DNA from: Elainellaceae cyanobacterium
GTDB taxonomy: Bacteria > Cyanobacteriota > Cyanobacteriia > CAZCXK01
Length of the DNA stretch: 40,069 nucleotides
Direction of reading: 5' to 3'
Assembly (NCBI GenBank): GCA_051117555.1
Contig: JBNPEG010000015.1
Span: 18,650-58,718, forward strand
The notes below the pieces were generated by a model. It saw nothing but the letters and a program-made list of their open reading frames with translations, did not search any database and was not told the origin of the DNA. Positions 5,300 through 13,315 of the stretch are shown piece after piece. Numbering within the stretch: the first letter of the stretch is position 1; each line of letters opens with the position of its first letter. A program made the position numbers and the translations under genes.

Positions 5300-8110
5300 G
5301 TGGCAATGAAGCGTCAGAACATTAGTATCCTCGCAATTATCTCTTGGAGCAGCGTTTTTCTCGCATTTTTGTTGCTCTCTGCCGGCACAGTCTACGCTCA
5401 ACCGATGCGCTCTGATAGTTCGATGTTGCTGGCTCAAGCGACTGATACTGAGGGGGCCTCGGCTGACGATCTAGAACAGCTTCGTCAAGATCTAGAGCAG
5501 CTTTCGAGGCAACTTCAGCGCGAGCGGGATGCTCAGGAACGCGAGCGGGAGCTACAGGCAGAGTCGCAGGCAGCCGCCAACCGTTCAATCAGCCGCACCA
5601 CAACGCTGTTTAACGTGATGCTAGCTGTGTTAGCGCTTCTATTGGCAGCGGCGATCGCCGGTTTGTATCTTCTGCGCCGCTCGGTTATTCGAGAAGTGAC
5701 CGAAATCGTTCAATCTCATCTGAAAGAACTCGGCGATCTAAAAGGGCAAATTGACAGCGCAAAGCAGGAAGTCGGAACGATTCTCCGCGATTTTGAAGAC
5801 TTTGCAGATGAAACGGGTGAAGAAGCCGATACGTTTCAGAAACAGGTCAACGCTCGTAAAGAATCACTCAATCAGCTATCGGGGGAGTTAACTCAAGTCA
5901 AGCAAGAGGCGATCGAGTCATTACAGGCGACCCTAGAATCCGCTCAGCAGACTCTAGCGAATCTAGAGGGTGAGTTTGCGTCACGAATCGCTGCTCTTCA
6001 GTCTGAGGTCTTGGGGCAAAAAGATTCGGTGATTCAAAAATTTCGCAATTCAGAATCAGAGTTTGCCGCACAATTGGCAGAGTTTCAAAGCAATGCATCT
6101 CGACAAAAAGATGCAGTCTTTGAACATCTTGGCAACCTGGAGGCTAGATTATTGCCCCAGCTTGACGAACTTCGTTCAGACGTACAATCACAGGTTCGTC
6201 AACACAAAGACACAACGGTTCAAAATCTGACGCAACTCGAACGCGAATTTGGTGAGCAGTTAGACGAATTGCAGTCGAGCACCTATGGACAACGAGAACA
6301 AATCCTGGAGAATTTGAAGCGCTTAGAGGCTGAATTCTCAACTCTGTTGGTTGAACTGAGAACGGGGGCAATCGAGCAAAAGGATGCTGCCTTCGGGCGA
6401 TTCAAGCAAATCGAAGCTGAGTTACGCGAGCAAATCTCGGCATTGCGTGCCAATGTAGAATCCCAACGGGATGAAATTCAACAATCTCTTCAACGGTTGC
6501 AGGGTGATTTTACTGCCCAGCTATCTGAGTTTCAGGCCGATACAGAATCGCAGCGAAATTCAATTCGAGGCACGCTAGAACGATTAGAGTCAGAATTTGA
6601 AACGCAACTCTCCGAGCTGCAAACTGACGCTCAGGCTCAAAAAAATGCAGTCCGCGACAATCTGCAACGACTAGAAGAGGAGTTTGAGTCACAGAAGGCG
6701 GCGTTACAGTCTGAAGGTCAAAGTCGAAAAACCGAAATTCGTGACAATCTAGAGCAGCTTCAGTCAGAGATTTCTTCGCAGCTTTCAGCATTGCAAACGT
6801 CGGCAGAAAATCGCCAAAAAATCCTCTTTGAGAATCTAGAAAAAGCAGATGCTGAGCTGTCTGACCAACTGGCAGACATTAAGTCGATCGTGAAAGACCA
6901 GAAGGAAAAGCTGCGTCACAATGTTGAGAGTTTAGAATCAAAATTTGCATCTAAGCTGTCCGAGTTGGAATCTGGTGCGGAAGGGCAGCGAGAAGCCACC
7001 CTCGAAACCTTTAAGACCCTTGAGCGAGACATGGCAGAACGGCTCACCGCCTTTGAGTCTGATGCTCAAGCTCAAAAAGATGCGATCTTAAAGAAACTAG
7101 CTGAAATTACACCCGAATTTATTGCAGATTCGTTTGTCAGCGAGGCGCAGCAGAAATTTAAGAATCTAACCGAGCAGCTCGATGTCTTGAAGTCCAACAA
7201 TCCAGAGCTGTTTTTGACGATTGATGATTACGTTAAGGAAGCAGACGCATTATTTGAGAGGGGGCGCTATGACGAGGCGATCGCCACCTATGATAAAGCG
7301 CTTGAGATCAAGCCCAATACTTTTCGATTGTGGTATCAGCGGGGTTTAGCCTTTGAAGAACTGCGCCAATTTGATGAGGCGATCGCCTCCTATGATAAAG
7401 CCATCGACATTAGCCCCGATGATCCCAATCCTTGGTATCACCGGGGGCTATTGCTCAAAGAACTCCGGCAGTTTGAAGCAGCCGTTGCCGCCTTCGATGA
7501 AACCGCGCAAATTCAGCCCAGTGATCACAAAGCATGGCTTAATCGAGGCATCTCCCTGAATCGACTAAAACGCCGTGACGAGGCGATCGCCTCCTTTGAT
7601 AAAGCTGTTGAAATCAAGCCCGATTACCACGAAGCATGGGTCAATCGAGGTGTAGCACTGGGCATCCTGCAGCGACATGATGAAGCCTTTGAATCGTTTG
7701 ATAAAGCCGTACAGGCGCAAGATGACGATGCGGTCGCTTGGTTTAATCGAGGGTTGGCACTAGAAGAGCTCAAACGCTATGACGAGGCGATCGCTTCCTT
7801 TGATAAAGTGATTCAGCTCAATCCTACCTCGCCCAAGGCGTGGGTTAATCGGGGCGCCTGCCTGATTCAACTGCGTGATTATCGGGAAGCGATTCTCAGT
7901 TTTGAGAAGGCACTAGACTTGCAGCCTGACTTTGCACCTGCCTACTACAACAAGGCGATCGCGCAAATTCGTCGCAACGAGATTGATCCAGGCTTAGAAA
8001 GTCTTCAGCAAGCGATTGATCTAAATCCTCGCTATCGCGAAGAAGCCAGAACAGAACCTGCCTTCGACCGGATGTGGAGCGACGACTGGTTTAGACAACT
8101 GGTCGAATAG
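5300..8110 (+). CDS. Membrane-anchored coiled-coil-rich protein with about 8 C-terminal TPRs
   Basis: Signal-peptide-like N-terminus (TVYA-Q), a TM segment (LFNVMLAVLALLLAAAIAGLYLL), a long helical repeat region, then AW-NRG...EAIASFDKA repeats. The start could be 5306. Confidence 0.88.
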   Translation: MAMKRQNISILAIISWSSVFLAFLLLSAGTVYAQPMRSDSSMLLAQATDTEGASADDLEQLRQDLEQLSRQLQRERDAQERERELQAESQAAANRSISRTTTLFNVMLAVLALLLAAAIAGLYLLRRSVIREVTEIVQSHLKELGDLKGQIDSAKQEVGTILRDFEDFADETGEEADTFQKQVNARKESLNQLSGELTQVKQEAIESLQATLESAQQTLANLEGEFASRIAALQSEVLGQKDSVIQKFRNSESEFAAQLAEFQSNASRQKDAVFEHLGNLEARLLPQLDELRSDVQSQVRQHKDTTVQNLTQLEREFGEQLDELQSSTYGQREQILENLKRLEAEFSTLLVELRTGAIEQKDAAFGRFKQIEAELREQISALRANVESQRDEIQQSLQRLQGDFTAQLSEFQADTESQRNSIRGTLERLESEFETQLSELQTDAQAQKNAVRDNLQRLEEEFESQKAALQSEGQSRKTEIRDNLEQLQSEISSQLSALQTSAENRQKILFENLEKADAELSDQLADIKSIVKDQKEKLRHNVESLESKFASKLSELESGAEGQREATLETFKTLERDMAERLTAFESDAQAQKDAILKKLAEITPEFIADSFVSEAQQKFKNLTEQLDVLKSNNPELFLTIDDYVKEADALFERGRYDEAIATYDKALEIKPNTFRLWYQRGLAFEELRQFDEAIASYDKAIDISPDDPNPWYHRGLLLKELRQFEAAVAAFDETAQIQPSDHKAWLNRGISLNRLKRRDEAIASFDKAVEIKPDYHEAWVNRGVALGILQRHDEAFESFDKAVQAQDDDAVAWFNRGLALEELKRYDEAIASFDKVIQLNPTSPKAWVNRGACLIQLRDYREAILSFEKALDLQPDFAPAYYNKAIAQIRRNEIDPGLESLQQAIDLNPRYREEARTEPAFDRMWSDDWFRQLVE

Positions 8111-8239
8111 GCATTGTTTGCATTAATGAATGCATGAATTTTTCGTAGACTGGGATGTCACCAGGAAACCCGTTAAATCAAATTGGGGACAATAGAAGTA
8201 GTTTGCATCTTTAACGCGCAAATTGCCAAAACATCGACT

Positions 8240-10250
8240 ATGCGCTTTGTTCCGAATGATTCTCTTTTTAGTGACCAATGGTATCTCCTCAATGTAGGTC
8301 AATCCGTTAGTACGGGGCAGTGGGGCGGGTTAGCCGGTGAAGACCTCAACGTTTTGCCGGTTTGGGAGCGCGGCATCACGGGGCAAGGGGTCGTCATCGG
8401 CATCGTGGATGATGGGTTGCAATATGACCACCCCGATTTGAGCACTAACTATCGCAGCGATTTGAGTATCGACATTGTTGATGGTGATGCTGACCCCCAT
8501 TCCCCTGTTGGCTGACGAAAACTTTCACGGAACCTCTGTGGCTGGCATTGCAGCCGGTCGAGGAGGAAACGGCATCGGTATTACAGGGGTTGCCCCAGAT
8601 GCCTCCCTCGCAGGAATTCGCTTAATCACCACCCGTATTGTGAGTGATCGCCAAGAAGCCGCCGCAATGTCCTATCGAAATCAAGAGATTGCTATTTATA
8701 ACAACAGTTGGGGACCTGCTGACACCGCCGAATTAGCAGCCCCGGGGCCTCAGTTCTTAAACGCACTAAAAAATGGCGTCAAGCGAGGTAGAGGAGGGCT
8801 TGGCAGCATTTTTGTTTGGGCGGCAGGCAACGGCAGGCAGCAGAGCGACAACGTAAATTATGACGGGTATGCCAATTCTCGTTACACGATTGCCGTTGCG
8901 TCAGTAACCCCCTTTGGACGACAGGCTAACTACAGCGAACCGGGTGCATCCATTTTGGTCTCAGCCTTTGGAGACGGCGATTTTATAGGCATCACATCGG
9001 TCGATCTGGAGGACACCGAAGGTTACAACTCATCTGGGGAAGGCATCTTTGGCGTTAACTATGCCGATTTTGACTATACCAACGACTTCGGAGGCACATC
9101 CGCCTCTGCACCCATGGTGTCAGGCGTCGTTGCCCTCATGCTAGAGGCAAATCCAGCGTTATCATGGCGAGATGTTCAACACATTTTGGTGAATACGGCA
9201 CGGCACAATGATCCCCTCGATACTGACTGGCGCTTCAACGGAGCCGGACACCTCGTTAATCACAACTACGGATTTGGGGTCGTTGATGCCGAGGCCGCAG
9301 TTAACGTTGCTCAGTCTTGGATACCCGTTGCTCGTGAACGGTCGTCTAAATCGGGTCGAATCCAAGTCAGGCAAGAGATTCCTGATAATGACCCAACGGG
9401 CTTGGTGTCAACAGTTACGGTAGAAGACAATCTTAAGGTGGAATGGGTCGAAGTCGTCTTTGATGCCGATCATCGATCGAGTGACGATTTAAATGTGGTG
9501 CTGGTGTCGCCCGATGGCACGGAGTCGGTGCTGGCAGAACAATTCAATGCCCGAGGGATTGACCACGGCGATTACAACAACTGGCTGTTTACGTCTGCTC
9601 GTCAGTGGGACGAATTTGCGGTCGGCACGTGGAGGTTGCGCGTTTCGGATACAAGCACCGCTCACAAGGGCACATGGAACGCTTGGACATTACGAATCCA
9701 TGGAACACAAACCTTTGTCGAGACGCCGTGGGCCGATGAGCTGGTTGGAACTAGCGGTGATGATGCGATCGCCGGGAAGCAGGGTAACGATCGGCTGATA
9801 GGGTTAGGCGGCAGCGATCGCTTAGTGGGTGGCAGAGGACGCGATCACCTCAACGGTAACGGTCATGCAGATAGTCTGCTAGGCGGCACCGGCGGCGATC
9901 GCCTATTCGGGAATCAGGGGCGAGATACGCTAGACGGCGGTCATGGCAAAGACCATCTAGACGGCGGAATTGGCAAAGACACTCTCATTGGAGGTCTGAA
10001 AACCGACTTTCTTACTGGGGGGCGCGGACGCGACACCTTTGTATTAGAAAAAGGGGTCGGGCGGGACACGATTCTAGATTTTAAGATCCAGCGCGATCGC
10101 CTGGGAATGTCTGACAATATCAGCTTCGACGATCTCGATATTATTGAGCGCGGTGCAAATACGTTAATCAAGCACGGGCGCGATCGCCTCGCCCTCGTGT
10201 TAGATATCGACCCTCATCAGCTCGATCGCCATGATTTTGTGACGATCTGA
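8240..10250 (+). pseudogene. Frameshifted S8 (kexin/furin-like) serine peptidase with P-domain and RTX Ca-binding repeats; pseudogene, phase variant or sequence error
   Basis: The catalytic Asp (GIVDDG) is in ORF 8240-8515. His (HGTSVAG), oxyanion Asn (WAAGNG) and Ser (GGTSASAP) are in ORF 8475-10250. Deleting one C from the C5 run at 8494-8498 fuses them. GGxGxDxL nonapeptides lie at the C-terminus. Confidence 0.85.
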
Positions 10251-10320
10251 TTCACAACACTTCAAAGCTGCTGTACTCAAAGCTGCGTATATCCATTCTA
10301 GGAAACCCCCAAGACTCCCT

Positions 10321-11274
10321 TTATCTCAGCGAATCTCGAAGGGTTTGTTCGGGCGATCGCGGTTGCCAGCCAAGGGTTTGACATGCTTTGGTTGCATCGA
10401 CTCTGACACAGCGATCGTAAATATAATGCACGCGTTCACGGCTGATGGGGGGTTGCCACGTGAGCAGACGACCCACGGGGGTGAGAATTGTGCCAACCAG
10501 CCGCACGATCGGTTCAGGAATTTCGATGGGGACAGACATTCCGGTTTCTTGGCTGAGGAATTCAAACATATCGCGAGTCGTCATATCGCCCGCCGAAAAG
10601 ATATAGTAGTCCCCGCGATTTCCCTTTTCAGCCGCCAACAGCATCCCGTCAACGAGATCATCCACATGCACAATGCCGGTGACGCGATCGCCCCCTGCCC
10701 AGACTCGGAGTTTTCCCTTGAGAAACGTCTTTAAAACAGGACCAAAGTGCGGATCATCCGCTCCAAAGATGCCAGATGGCATCACGCTGACGACATGAAA
10801 CCCTTGGGAAGCAGCCTGATCGACAAGCTGTTGAGCGAGATATTTCGTGCGATCGTAGGCCGATGAGAAATCTTTTTGAGTCCGTTCAAAGGTTTCGTTG
10901 ATTACCTGTCCTTGCGTGTCCCCAAAAACGCCGATGGTGCTGCAATACACCATTTTCGGCACTCCCAACTCCCGTGCAACCTCTAATACAGCCCGGGTGC
11001 CTTCGACGTTGACGGTTTCCATCTTGGCATCATCAACCAAACCCAGTTCGACATAGGCGGCAATGTGAAAGACCACGTCAGCGTCTGCCATGCCGGTTTT
11101 GAGAGCATCGCGATCGGTAATGTCGCCCTGCACGAATTGAATGTCGCAATCTGCCAATCGAGACAAGTCGCTCGTTTTGCGCACCAGCCCAGCGATTGTA
11201 TCTCCTCGTTGATTGAGGGCATGCGCCAGATGAGAGCCTGTAAATCCATTAATGCCGGTAATAAATGCTTTCAT
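10321..11274 (-). CDS. NAD(P)-dependent epimerase/dehydratase family extended SDR (HpnA/DFR-like)
   Basis: ITGINGFTG, GDITD, VFHIAA, VNVEGT, YCST, YDRTK (YxxxK), VHVDD. Its ATG overlaps the upstream stop (ATGA). Confidence 0.9.
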   Translation of the reverse strand: MKAFITGINGFTGSHLAHALNQRGDTIAGLVRKTSDLSRLADCDIQFVQGDITDRDALKTGMADADVVFHIAAYVELGLVDDAKMETVNVEGTRAVLEVARELGVPKMVYCSTIGVFGDTQGQVINETFERTQKDFSSAYDRTKYLAQQLVDQAASQGFHVVSVMPSGIFGADDPHFGPVLKTFLKGKLRVWAGGDRVTGIVHVDDLVDGMLLAAEKGNRGDYYIFSAGDMTTRDMFEFLSQETGMSVPIEIPEPIVRLVGTILTPVGRLLTWQPPISRERVHYIYDRCVRVDATKACQTLGWQPRSPEQTLRDSLR

Positions 11275-12428
11275 AGTGACTTCTCGTAGATGCGGTACGT
11301 TTTATAAATTTTGCCCCCTGCCGCCTCGGTCACCTTTCGTGAGGGATAGTTGTCTTCATAGACATACCCCAGTTCGGCTTGCTGATACGGAGCACGCTTG
11401 TTTGCGGTGCCGCCTTCCATTCCGAGATAAATCAATGCCAGCGGTACGAGCTTGCGAATAAATTCGGGCAAGGAACAAATCACGATGACACGAGCCTGAT
11501 TAATCATGCGGCGATACCACAAAAATTTGAGAATGCCCCACCCATTCAACCTCCCATTGACGTGTTTGAGAGCGATGTTATAGTCGGGCAACGCCATAAA
11601 GAAACCAATCATGTTGCCGTTGTACTCCGCAATCCAGAAGATGTCGGGGTCAACTAGGCTTTGCAGCTCCTTAGCTTCTTCCATGAATTCGTCTCGGGTG
11701 CGAGGAGTCGAGCTGTAATTGTTGGCAAAGGCAGTCGTAAACAGCCGATAAAGCCCCTCACAATCGCGTTTAAATTCGTCTCCTTTGGTGTGCAGCTTAC
11801 GAAACACGACCCCTGATTTTAATGCAATGCGATAGCCCTTCTCAAATTCAGACGGTAACGGTTCACCTGGAAAATGATAGGCATAGGCATCTTTCGCTTT
11901 TTGCCAACCGGCTTGCTCCATAAATTGAGGGTAATAGGGAGGGTTGTACGGCATCAGCATATAGGGCGATGAATCAAAGCCATCGACCAGCATTAGGCAG
12001 CCATTGTGGGTAGACAGATTAATTGGACCGCGAACCGTCGTCATGCCGCGATCGCGCAACCAGTCACAGGCCGCATTGAACAACGCCTGGGCGATGTTGA
12101 AATCATCAATGCATTCAAAAAAGCCAAATAGCCCAATTTGCTCTCCTTCTCGCTCGATCAAGCGCTGATTCACTGCGGCAACGATGCGACCGACGGCTTC
12201 AGTTTTATCGTCCGCTTCACGAATTGCGATAAACGGTTGTAGTGAGCCGTATTCTAAAAACGGATTCTCGTCTGAAAAATTTTTAGCAACGCTGCTGCGA
12301 AGCGGCTGCACCCAATGAGGATCGTTCGCATACACCCGTTTGGGCACGTCCAGAAATTGTTCTATTTCGTTCGGAGTCGTGACCGCGCGAATGTGAACCG
12401 TTGCTGACGTGCTAGTTGCAGTAGTCAT
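11271..12428 (-). CDS. GNAT-fold N-acyltransferase of the YghO / bacterial ceramide synthase (bCerS)-like family
   Basis: VYANDPHWVQPL, NPF, VGRIVA, GLFGFFECIDD, WLRDRGMTTVRGPINLS, LVDGFD...MPYNPPYY, ALPDYN, ELGYVYEDN, KTYRIYEK. Family recognised from memory of these motifs. Confidence 0.75.
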   Translation of the reverse strand: MTTATSTSATVHIRAVTTPNEIEQFLDVPKRVYANDPHWVQPLRSSVAKNFSDENPFLEYGSLQPFIAIREADDKTEAVGRIVAAVNQRLIEREGEQIGLFGFFECIDDFNIAQALFNAACDWLRDRGMTTVRGPINLSTHNGCLMLVDGFDSSPYMLMPYNPPYYPQFMEQAGWQKAKDAYAYHFPGEPLPSEFEKGYRIALKSGVVFRKLHTKGDEFKRDCEGLYRLFTTAFANNYSSTPRTRDEFMEEAKELQSLVDPDIFWIAEYNGNMIGFFMALPDYNIALKHVNGRLNGWGILKFLWYRRMINQARVIVICSLPEFIRKLVPLALIYLGMEGGTANKRAPYQQAELGYVYEDNYPSRKVTEAAGGKIYKTYRIYEKSL

Positions 12429-12551
12429 GATCGTTTTTGGAGAGAAATGATGCTAGTATCCCCAAATTAAATCATTTGCTGCGCTGTTTGTGGGGCGATC
12501 GCGTGTCGTTTCTCGGAGTGTCTGCGTGGGGCAATATGGCGGTATGCGCTT

Positions 12552-12612
12552 GGGTTGAGTACGGTGGTGCGGGGCGCGACCCCCACCACTCACAACCCAT
12601 GTGGGATTGCTA
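12552..12612 (-). mobile_element. MITE-like dispersed repeat, family 1, copy B (partial: left end plus hairpin)
   Basis: The minus strand reads TA-TAGCAATCCCACATGGGTTGTGAGTGGTGGGGG...CCCCGCACCAC...CAACCC. The right terminus is not recognisable. Confidence 0.65.
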
Positions 12613-12740
12613 TATTTGACAGTATCTAGGGAGAATATCTAGAGACAAGATAAGTAGATTCGATGAAGAACCGTCTCTATCGAGATTAGAAGGTTATATT
12701 GAGCACATAATCTGTCTCACTCGTATACTCAACCTGTATT

Positions 12741-13001
12741 ATGGATCGCCTCACCATCCAAGACGCTCAACAACAACTTCTTGATTTGCCCAACCAGCTT
12801 GCTAACGAGCCTGTGATTATCACCCGTGATGGTCAACCTGTAATGGCAGCGATGAGCTATGAGCAATTGACGTCCTTGCTTGAAACGTTAGATATTTTGG
12901 CAGATACGGATTTTGCAGACCTTCTGCAACACAGTATTTCCCAGGCAGACCGGGGTGAAACATTTTGTTGGGATGACGTTCAAATTCAGCTTGATGTATG
13001 A
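12741..13001 (+). CDS. Type II toxin-antitoxin antitoxin, Phd/YefM family
   Basis: 86 aa acidic protein with LTIQDAQQQL...EPVIITRDGQPVMAAMSYEQLTSLLETLDIL. ATGA overlap with the downstream toxin. Confidence 0.9.
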   Translation: MDRLTIQDAQQQLLDLPNQLANEPVIITRDGQPVMAAMSYEQLTSLLETLDILADTDFADLLQHSISQADRGETFCWDDVQIQLDV

Positions 13002-13315
13002 CCGATTCGTCTCGCTATACAATTCGCGTGACTCCGCTCGCCCTTCAGCGGCTGGCGCGTATCACTGACCCCTGCGATCGCGACGCAATTGGCGATCGCA
13101 TTCGTCATCTTAATCACGAACCAGAAACTCAGGGTCACCCTCTGATTGGCAAACTCTTTGGCTATCGAAGCGTCAAAGCGGCTAATCATTGCTATCGAAT
13201 CGTGTATCGATTAGAGCACCGGGCGGTCGTCGTGCTGATGGTTGAGCGTGAGCATCATAACGGGGCTGCTCGAACGCCTATAGACTTAGTACGAGATTAC
13301 TATACTATAGGGTAA
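12998..13315 (+). CDS. Type II toxin-antitoxin toxin, RelE/ParE family
   Basis: YTIRVTPLALQRL, P..QGHPLIGKLFGYRS, YRIVYRL, VVVLMV. Coupled to the antitoxin. Confidence 0.85.
   Translation: MTDSSRYTIRVTPLALQRLARITDPCDRDAIGDRIRHLNHEPETQGHPLIGKLFGYRSVKAANHCYRIVYRLEHRAVVVLMVEREHHNGAARTPIDLVRDYYTIG

Follow-up and report, generated by a model that had tools for sequence, protein, structure and literature searches.

The stretch of DNA analysed here, called the window in what follows, comprises 40,069 nucleotides of the genome of an Elainellaceae cyanobacterium (assembly GCA_051117555.1, contig JBNPEG010000015.1, positions 18,650 to 58,718). It carries two overlapping genes on its minus strand, one for a predicted N-acyltransferase with the GNAT fold and one for a short-chain dehydrogenase/reductase (SDR). 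These two very probably act in one pathway with an alpha-oxoamine synthase (AOS) that is encoded on another contig of the same genome (Table 1). A two-gene unit with an ATGA overlap had been noticed in a preliminary description of the sequence, and it is present. The junction reads TCACTATGAAAGCA, and the TGA stop of the GNAT gene and the ATG start of the SDR gene share ATGA. End-to-start abutment of the two genes, judged by coordinates, is also found in loci L037, L040, L049, L050, and L051. Sequence comparison excludes chance open reading frames (ORFs), as both are genuine conserved genes with orthologues in 15 other genomes. The genes on the two flanks of the pair are unrelated to it, with a convergent gene for a subtilase with RTX repeats downstream and a divergent Phd/YefM-type pair upstream.

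Table 1. Coordinates of the overlapping gene pair and of the AOS gene proposed to act with it.
Feature	Position	Strand	Basis or remark
385-aa tandem-GNAT N-acyltransferase, YghO/bCerS family (predicted)	window 11271..12428, stop codon included	minus	ORF with ATG start, motifs, YghO homology, model
317-aa extended SDR (3beta-HSD/HpnA-like), putative NADPH-dependent ketoreductase	window 10321..11274, stop codon included	minus	ORF with ATG start, Pfam, motifs
ATGA stop/start overlap joining the GNAT and SDR genes (translational coupling)	window 11271..11274	minus	sequence
Stand-alone module AOS, 437 aa	G000:C54:54499-55809	minus	outside the window; likely GTG start at C54:55809

The eight motifs listed for the upstream protein in the preliminary description each occur once and in the order given. 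A count by regular expression located DPHWVQPL at residue 36, GRI at 80, FGFFE at 101, RGPINLS at 133, LVDGF at 147, MPYNPPYY at 159, LPDYN at 280, and KTYRIY at 376. Domain libraries contribute little to its identification. The only Pfam match is a marginal one to Acetyltransf_1 (21.5 bits, cut-off 20.7), no NCBIfam model matches the protein, and neither library returns a model specific for YghO or for the bacterial ceramide synthase bCerS; Escherichia coli YghO itself matches none. Direct comparison with intact E. coli YghO gave 28% identity over 379 of the 385 aa (E 3e-54), and the K-12 copy of YghO also aligns end to end (E 4e-53). When E. coli YghO was searched against the source genome (G000; 6.06 Mb in 256 contigs), the GNAT gene of the window was the single match. 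In the available text of PMC9386255, yghO (ECD_02850) is listed with Caulobacter aca (CC_1154), the N-acyltransferase gene of dihydroceramide synthesis, and CC_1164 is listed with ECD_02852 as epi, the reductase gene of the same synthesis. Because of this listing, YghO is treated here as the published homologue of Caulobacter bCerS and the SDR encoded by E. coli epi as the homologue of the ketoreductase CerR; bCerS and CerR are represented in all comparisons by these E. coli proteins, not by Caulobacter or Bacteroidota sequences.

The fold agrees with this relationship. An AlphaFold model built from 89 sequences (pLDDT 93.8, pTM 0.90) predicts a tandem GNAT, with two GNAT domains in one chain. 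A Foldseek search with the model returned tandem GNATs as the best matches (7q3a, 2wpw, 2c27, and 5kf1; E 1e-14 to 1e-12, TM about 0.55–0.70), and the matches include MAB_4324, the clavulanate tandem GNAT, mycothiol synthase (MshD), and a glucosamine N-acetyltransferase. The bCerS/YghO-like character and GNAT fold that had been proposed for the protein are thus upheld, and full-length homology places it in the YghO/bCerS family. A sequence search of the PDB with the protein gave spurious low-complexity matches only, and the ESM Atlas returned no more than generic names of GNAT clusters. A large protein collection contains at least 120 clusters at 68–93% identity; named homologues include proteins of Allocoleopsis franciscana, Mastigocladopsis repens, Trichocoleus, Coleofasciculus, Leptolyngbya, and a Scytonema sp. 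(P0107, 69% identity).

The downstream protein had been described as an extended SDR with GxxGxxG and YxxxK motifs, and it is one. It matches Pfam Epimerase (E 2e-40) and 3Beta_HSD (E 9e-32), and a regular-expression search found GINGFTG at residue 7 (G7xxG10xxG13) and YDRTK at residue 140 (Y140xxxK144). Its NCBIfam matches are HpnA (196.6 bits, cut-off 367.65), SdmB (135.8 bits, cut-off 600), and OleD (about 98–110 bits), all below cut-off. The nearest solved relative is the uncharacterised oxidoreductase 3wj7 (131 bits), and human sterol-4-carboxylate dehydrogenase is among the weaker matches. An Arg-Lys pair just after the second strand (LVRK, residues 30–33) presumably indicates NADPH as the cofactor. 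The protein is 23% identical to the E. coli CerR homologue, Epi (pairwise E 3e-15), and the two have the same top NCBIfam matches, HpnA and OleD. Its Rossmann motif begins at residue 7 with no leader before it, and the chain has no strongly hydrophobic segment (maximum KD19 1.34), which suggests a cytoplasmic enzyme. The CerR of Caulobacter, in contrast, is periplasmic according to the available text of PMC11087976.

The source genome contains two AOS-type genes only, a stand-alone gene on contig C54 and the C-terminal domain of a polyketide synthase (PKS) on contig C132. The start of the stand-alone AOS, referred to below as the module AOS, was placed by comparison with orthologues of 426–429 aa. 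A gene for a Rieske oxygenase precedes it on C54, followed by a divergent MFS transporter gene and, further out, by genes for an OlsC-like hydroxylase and a GH3 protein. The best NCBIfam match of the Rieske protein is SdmA (239.3 bits, cut-off 600). The module AOS keeps the catalytic His, Asp, and His, the Lys that binds pyridoxal phosphate (PLP; motif TFSK), and the carboxylate-binding Arg; these correspond to the invariant columns H136, D222, H225, K263, and R382 in an alignment with E. coli serine palmitoyltransferase (Spt), BioF, and Kbl. Its top NCBIfam match is bioF (236 bits), it scores below cut-off against the Spt models NF047600 (176 bits, cut-off 640), NF047599 (165 bits, cut-off 500), and NF047603 (118.5 bits, cut-off 670), and NF005526 is among the weaker matches. 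A profile of the module AOS searched against solved structures found serine palmitoyltransferases first (3a2b and 8guh; 158.5 bits), and then Kbl (137 bits), SPTLC2, BioF/Kbl, ALAS, and cysteate acyltransferase at 127–137 bits.

The distribution of the three genes was followed in 201 genomes drawn evenly from the phylum, consisting of the source genome, 77 others of the same class, and 123 of other classes. According to the BLAST and HMMER figures, orthologues of the GNAT protein (57–92% identity) are present in 16 of these genomes, the source genome included. Orthologues of the module AOS (73–98% identity) and of the SDR (58–94% identity, E<=1e-122) were found in all of these 16 genomes and in no others. 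The remaining AOS matches are at most 37% identical and resemble ordinary BioF of about 390 aa, and no SDR match at E<=1e-50 was found in any of the other 185 sampled genomes. The carriers are spread over 9 of the 23 families of the class (15 of its 77 other genomes carry the module), and in family f4 three of the four genomes have all three genes and the fourth, G194, has none. Orthologues of the Rieske protein (55–89% identity) are present in 11 of the 16 carriers and always adjoin the AOS gene, with a paralogue of about 36% identity common elsewhere.

The arrangement of the genes in the 15 other carriers was examined by tblastn on flanks of 12–17.5 kb. The AOS gene lies directly upstream of the GNAT gene in 12 of them. 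The SDR gene abuts the GNAT gene in 7 of the 16 carriers and lies within 7 kb of it in 9 (the source genome counted both times), and it is retained in the carriers where it is unlinked. A Rieske gene is located upstream of the AOS gene in 7 of the 15 flanks and also adjoins the unlinked AOS gene of G158, G017, and G190, and in 8 of the 15 an MFS gene is transcribed divergently from the module. The four genomes in which the AOS is unlinked from the GNAT gene are these three and the source genome, which belongs to the same genus as G158; the split of the module over two contigs in the source genome explains the absence of an AOS from the window. Strict co-occurrence together with synteny is the pattern expected for three enzymes of one pathway.

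The proposed pathway consists of three steps. In the first, the divergent PLP-dependent AOS would condense an amino acid with an acyl thioester to a 2-amino-3-keto compound, and the acyl donor is probably acyl-acyl carrier protein (acyl-ACP), because the module comes without a dedicated carrier or ligase. The tandem GNAT would then N-acylate the amine of the amino ketone, and the translationally coupled SDR would use NAD(P)H to reduce the ketone at position 3. Together the three steps would yield a ceramide-like lipid, an N-acyl amino alcohol. The order of acylation before reduction is borrowed by analogy from the Caulobacter model. The Rieske oxygenase probably hydroxylates or desaturates the product, the OlsC-like hydroxylase may also decorate the chains in the source genome, and the divergently transcribed MFS transporter probably moves the product. 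What was observed is the homology, the fold, the intact catalytic residues, the strict co-occurrence, and the synteny found in relatives; from these the reactions and their sequence, the lipid nature of the substrates, the amino acid, and the cofactor are proposed. Acylation followed by ketoreduction of an amino-ketone lipid is what the preliminary description had proposed for the pair. As a pathway on an amino ketone this part is well supported by the genomics, through the co-occurrence and synteny of the AOS, but a strict ceramide pathway was not borne out. On balance, a ceramide-like N-acyl amino-alcohol lipid is judged the probable product. The module may be read as the Spt-bCerS-CerR scheme with each protein in its own lineage and with different accessory genes.

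Several observations weigh against such a reading. The preliminary description had suggested searching the genome for an Spt-clade AOS distinct from BioF and Kbl; the AOS on C54 does fall outside the BioF clade, but it also falls outside the Spt clade and scores below the NCBIfam cut-offs for Spt. In an AOS tree of 38 rows, obtained by a careful search under LG+C20, the module AOS forms a clade with support 100/100 on a stem of 3.59 changes per column. It falls outside two other clades, one (support 100/95) that unites Spt with the Rhodothermales and fused AOS and one (support 100/97) of cyanobacterial BioF. Long branches meet in this tree, as the tool warned, and the exact position of the module AOS is unsure; its separation is not. 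The protein also has three insertions (11, 12, and 7 residues) and a four-residue deletion just before the carboxylate-binding Arg, and together with the long stem these changes mean that its substrates may differ greatly from serine and a palmitoyl thioester. The other two proteins likewise branch outside the bCerS and CerR clades, an outcome that the preliminary description had named as one that would refute its proposal. The GNAT tree (100 rows, IQ-TREE quick search, LG+G4, SH-aLRT support only, without a mixture model) kept every third full-length sequence among 150 representatives and omitted the other two thirds as well as fragments. In it the 16 cyanobacterial proteins group together (support 96), with the single representative P0125 as sister (support 99), and their clade joins homologues from non-photosynthetic classes of the phylum weakly (support 81). 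A separate clade of 25 rows (support 99) holds the proteobacterial YghO/bCerS proteins, among them E. coli YghO and those encoded by the Spt-linked genes. Reciprocal searches did not pair the SDR with the E. coli CerR homologue as best matches in either direction. Epi finds a paralogue on contig C5 as its best match in the source genome, and the SDR scores higher against another SDR of the E. coli chromosome, its best match there (53.8 bits), than against Epi (38.2 bits). In addition, the AOS gene is unlinked from the GNAT-SDR pair in the source genome itself, no gene for an ACP or an acyl-activating enzyme is constant in the module, and the carriers are related to each other, so that fewer than 16 independent events lie behind the co-occurrence. 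Finally, an AOS is absent from the neighbourhood in some lineages of the YghO family, among them 13 of the 25 rows of the proteobacterial clade and forms fused to PilZ domains.

The alternative that survives best narrows the preferred reading to a canonical sphingolipid pathway, in which the module AOS is a divergent serine palmitoyltransferase and the pair makes ordinary dihydroceramide as Spt, bCerS, and CerR do. The three enzyme classes are the same, the GNAT protein belongs to the bCerS/YghO family, and serine palmitoyltransferases are the best solved relatives of the AOS profile. According to the available text of PMC8895605, a Scytonema species has been reported to contain a ceramide-type lipid whose genetic basis is not known, and Nostoc punctiforme, which was reported with one AOS only, had no sphingolipids. 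A Scytonema protein (P0107) is among the GNAT orthologues, but its species is not the one in which the lipid was reported. The AOS, moreover, scores lower against NF047600 than against bioF, lies outside the clade that contains Spt, and has an altered loop beside the substrate-binding Arg, and the SDR is not an orthologue of CerR. Ordinary dihydroceramide is therefore regarded as an unlikely product.

The product of the module could instead be a specialised metabolite that is small or not part of membranes, such as a short-chain N-acyl amino ketone or amino alcohol that serves as a signal or an exported natural product. Such a role would fit the patchy distribution (15 of the 77 other genomes of the class), the divergently linked transporter of efflux type in 9 loci, and the strong divergence of the AOS. 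AOS enzymes also make quorum-sensing autoinducers, with NF005526 among the weaker matches of the module AOS, and the substrates of many YghO-family lineages are not known. The identity of 57–98% across 9 families and the single-copy genes, however, suit a housekeeping role in lipid metabolism better than they suit a variable natural-product cluster. The occasional neighbours are acyl-lipid enzymes (OlsC-like, OlsH-like GH3, and SdmA-like Rieske proteins), and the characterised GNAT relatives act on long-chain bases according to the available text of PMC11087976. A specialised metabolite of this kind appears rather improbable.

A very improbable third explanation takes the SDR and the Rieske protein as an oxidation/decarboxylation pair similar to SdmA and SdmB, which acts on a polycyclic or methyl-branched lipid of hopanoid or sterol type, with the overlap with the GNAT gene incidental. 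The sterol C-4 demethylation pair SdmA/SdmB likewise consists of a Rieske oxygenase and a 3beta-HSD-like SDR acting on a lipid, and functional homologues of SdmAB exist in a cyanobacterium (PMC10202945, in its available text). SdmA is the best match of the module Rieske protein, and SdmB is the second-best match of the SDR after HpnA. These scores are far below the cut-offs of 367, 600, and 600, and those to SdmA and SdmB reach only a quarter to two fifths of theirs. The E. coli CerR homologue shares the HpnA and OleD matches, so that they indicate a broad SDR subgroup and not a function. The SDR also follows the GNAT and AOS genes and not the Rieske gene. It is present with both in all 16 carriers, of which 11 have a Rieske orthologue, it abuts the GNAT gene in 7, and wherever the SDR gene was located it does not adjoin the Rieske gene.

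That the unlinked AOS is nothing other than BioF of biotin synthesis, with the GNAT-SDR pair acting on something unrelated, can hardly be correct: bioF is its top NCBIfam match, and neither the source genome nor G158 shows an ordinary BioF of about 390 aa (only the module AOS and the PKS-AOS were found), but the 14 other carriers each also have an ordinary BioF-like gene (32–36% identity to the module AOS), the 185 non-carriers lack the module AOS and keep BioF, cyanobacterial BioF forms its own clade, and a biotin role is not needed in the source genome, where bioB was not found at E<=1e-10. The gene bioD is present in this genome, and the missing BioF and bioB suggest an incomplete biotin pathway or assembly gaps.

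The ceramide-like lipid preferred here has its closest parallel in the proteobacterial dihydroceramide pathway. This pathway consists of the same three enzyme classes as the module, namely Spt, bCerS (Aca, CC_1154/CCNA_01212; YghO in E. coli), and CerR (Epi, CC_1164), together with AcpR and AasR; for the Caulobacter bCerS and CerR, PMC10331486 gives the accessions A0A0H3C8X0 and A0A0H3C8X7. The genes of the module are clustered in relatives of the source organism, as are the dihydroceramide genes of E. coli and Caulobacter in the available text of PMC9386255. The differences are that each protein of the module is in a separate clade, that a dedicated ACP or acyl-ACP synthetase is missing from the module, that it adds a Rieske oxygenase and an MFS transporter, and that its AOS has unique insertions and a deletion. 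A non-canonical AOS can start sphingolipid synthesis in bacteria, as the available text of PMC12134224 describes for SgaA (a PKS) and SgaB (an AOS) of Pseudomonas fluorescens MYb115. The PKS-AOS of the source genome (G000:C132:13543-21600, minus strand; loci L005/L036) resembles a fused SgaA/SgaB. It is a single-module PKS of 2686 aa with the domains KS-AT-DH-ER-KR-ACP and a C-terminal AOS domain, which is 35% identical to E. coli Spt (26% for the module AOS), and the genes upstream of it encode a GT4 glycosyltransferase and a PMT_2 protein. The PKS-AOS was considered as an obligatory partner of the GNAT-SDR pair and rejected, as its orthologues (59–91% identity) occur in 10 of the 201 genomes, 6 of them without the module and 4 with it.

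Pairing of an AOS with an acyltransferase of the YghO family extends beyond the cyanobacteria. The family comprises 6658 clusters at 50% identity with E<=1e-3, and 931 with E<=1e-30. Three proteins, P0157 (780 aa), P0199 (777 aa), and P0222 (648 aa), are fusions of an AOS with a YghO-like domain, and the best NCBIfam match of their AOS part is the serine palmitoyltransferase NF047600. The AOS precedes the acyltransferase in them, the same order as that of the cyanobacterial AOS and GNAT genes; the fusion AOS, however, lies inside the Spt clade and the fusion GNAT elsewhere in its tree, whereas the cyanobacterial genes are separate. In P0232 the YghO-like domain is fused to an AMP-binding domain. 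According to RefSeq annotation, yghO of a natural E. coli strain is divergent from a series of genes for Spt, an ACP, an NAD-dependent epimerase/dehydratase, and a fatty acyl-AMP ligase (FAAL), and the Spt of this strain passes NF047599 (599.9 bits, cut-off 500); E. coli K-12, in contrast, is without the spt cluster. A search for related loci with YghO as the query returned mostly Enterobacterales and no Caulobacter. Among 251 Pseudomonadota genomes drawn around a Pseudomonas locus, 18 have a YghO homologue, and genes of the Spt cluster (together with an ACP and in most cases Epi and FAAL) are nearby at 5 of these 18 loci. A different AOS lies directly upstream of the YghO homologue in the proteobacterial locus L124, and two Rhodothermales genomes likewise have an AOS gene directly upstream. 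Judged from these sequences, the association of an AOS with an acyltransferase of the YghO family recurs in distant lineages but is not universal. Other forms of the family include P0142 and P0172, which carry an N-terminal PilZ (c-di-GMP-binding) domain, and homologues from non-photosynthetic Cyanobacteriota (L129, L132, and L133) with N-terminal extensions of about 400–640 residues that have no Pfam or NCBIfam match.

Sphingolipids are, to our knowledge, not an accepted lipid class of cyanobacteria. The available text of PMC8895605 states that, as of 2022, neither a genetic basis nor a sphingolipid enzyme had been reported for cyanobacteria, and that neither sphingolipids nor a second AOS were found in Nostoc punctiforme. 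No description of a cyanobacterial AOS-GNAT-SDR module was found in the literature searched, which did not extend to most subscription journals or to the supplements of bCerS surveys, where cyanobacterial matches may be listed. It is possible, but at present rather doubtful, that a sizeable minority of cyanobacteria, represented by 15 of the 77 other sampled genomes of the class and by 9 families, produce an undescribed sphingolipid-like membrane lipid through a third, independently diverged AOS lineage and their own bCerS-like and reductase lineages. If so, the module would give cyanobacterial sphingolipids their first genetic basis, among them the ceramide-type lipids that have been reported for two cyanobacteria, Scytonema julianum and Moorea producens, and it would possibly mark a new source of amide-lipid biomarkers in mats and soils. 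With three concrete genes, two frequent accessory ones, and carriers among culturable strains, the module lends itself to testing. The recurrent pairing of an AOS with the YghO family, fusions included, is relevant both to the debated order of steps in bacterial ceramide synthesis and to the question of how often sphingolipid-like chemistry arose.

Further genes were noted around the AOS and the pair. The OlsC-like protein on C54 lies beyond the MFS gene (L033:13332-15840, minus strand); it is an OlsC/LpxO-like acyl 2-hydroxylase of 258 aa with 269 bits to OlsC, below cut-off. The GH3-family protein on the same contig has 563 aa, and its single NCBIfam match is the lyso-ornithine-lipid synthetase OlsH (88 bits, below cut-off). 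GH3 genes are also found near the module in three other carriers (L039, L041 with two copies, and L043). Within the window, a scan of positions 10000–13000 for promoters and terminators yielded nothing usable. A look-up of sequencing runs listed no RNA run, and 4 metagenome DNA runs contain 5–22% of the sampled words. The gene for the subtilase, which has a P-domain and RTX repeats (8183-10250, plus strand), is split into overlapping ORFs at 8183-8515 and 8475-10250. In a same-genus genome it is a single ORF of 677 aa (L037:5046-7076), which suggests that the window has a frameshift or a sequencing error here. On its far side (5300-8110, plus strand) a protein of 936 aa is encoded, with a signal-like N-terminus, a long repetitive Q/E/L-rich region resembling a coiled coil, and C-terminal TPR-like repeats. 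Directly upstream of the GNAT gene and divergent from it (12741-13315, plus strand), an 86-aa Phd/YefM-type antitoxin gene overlaps by 4 bases with a 105-aa ORF that has no Pfam match, and the two are probably a type II toxin-antitoxin pair.

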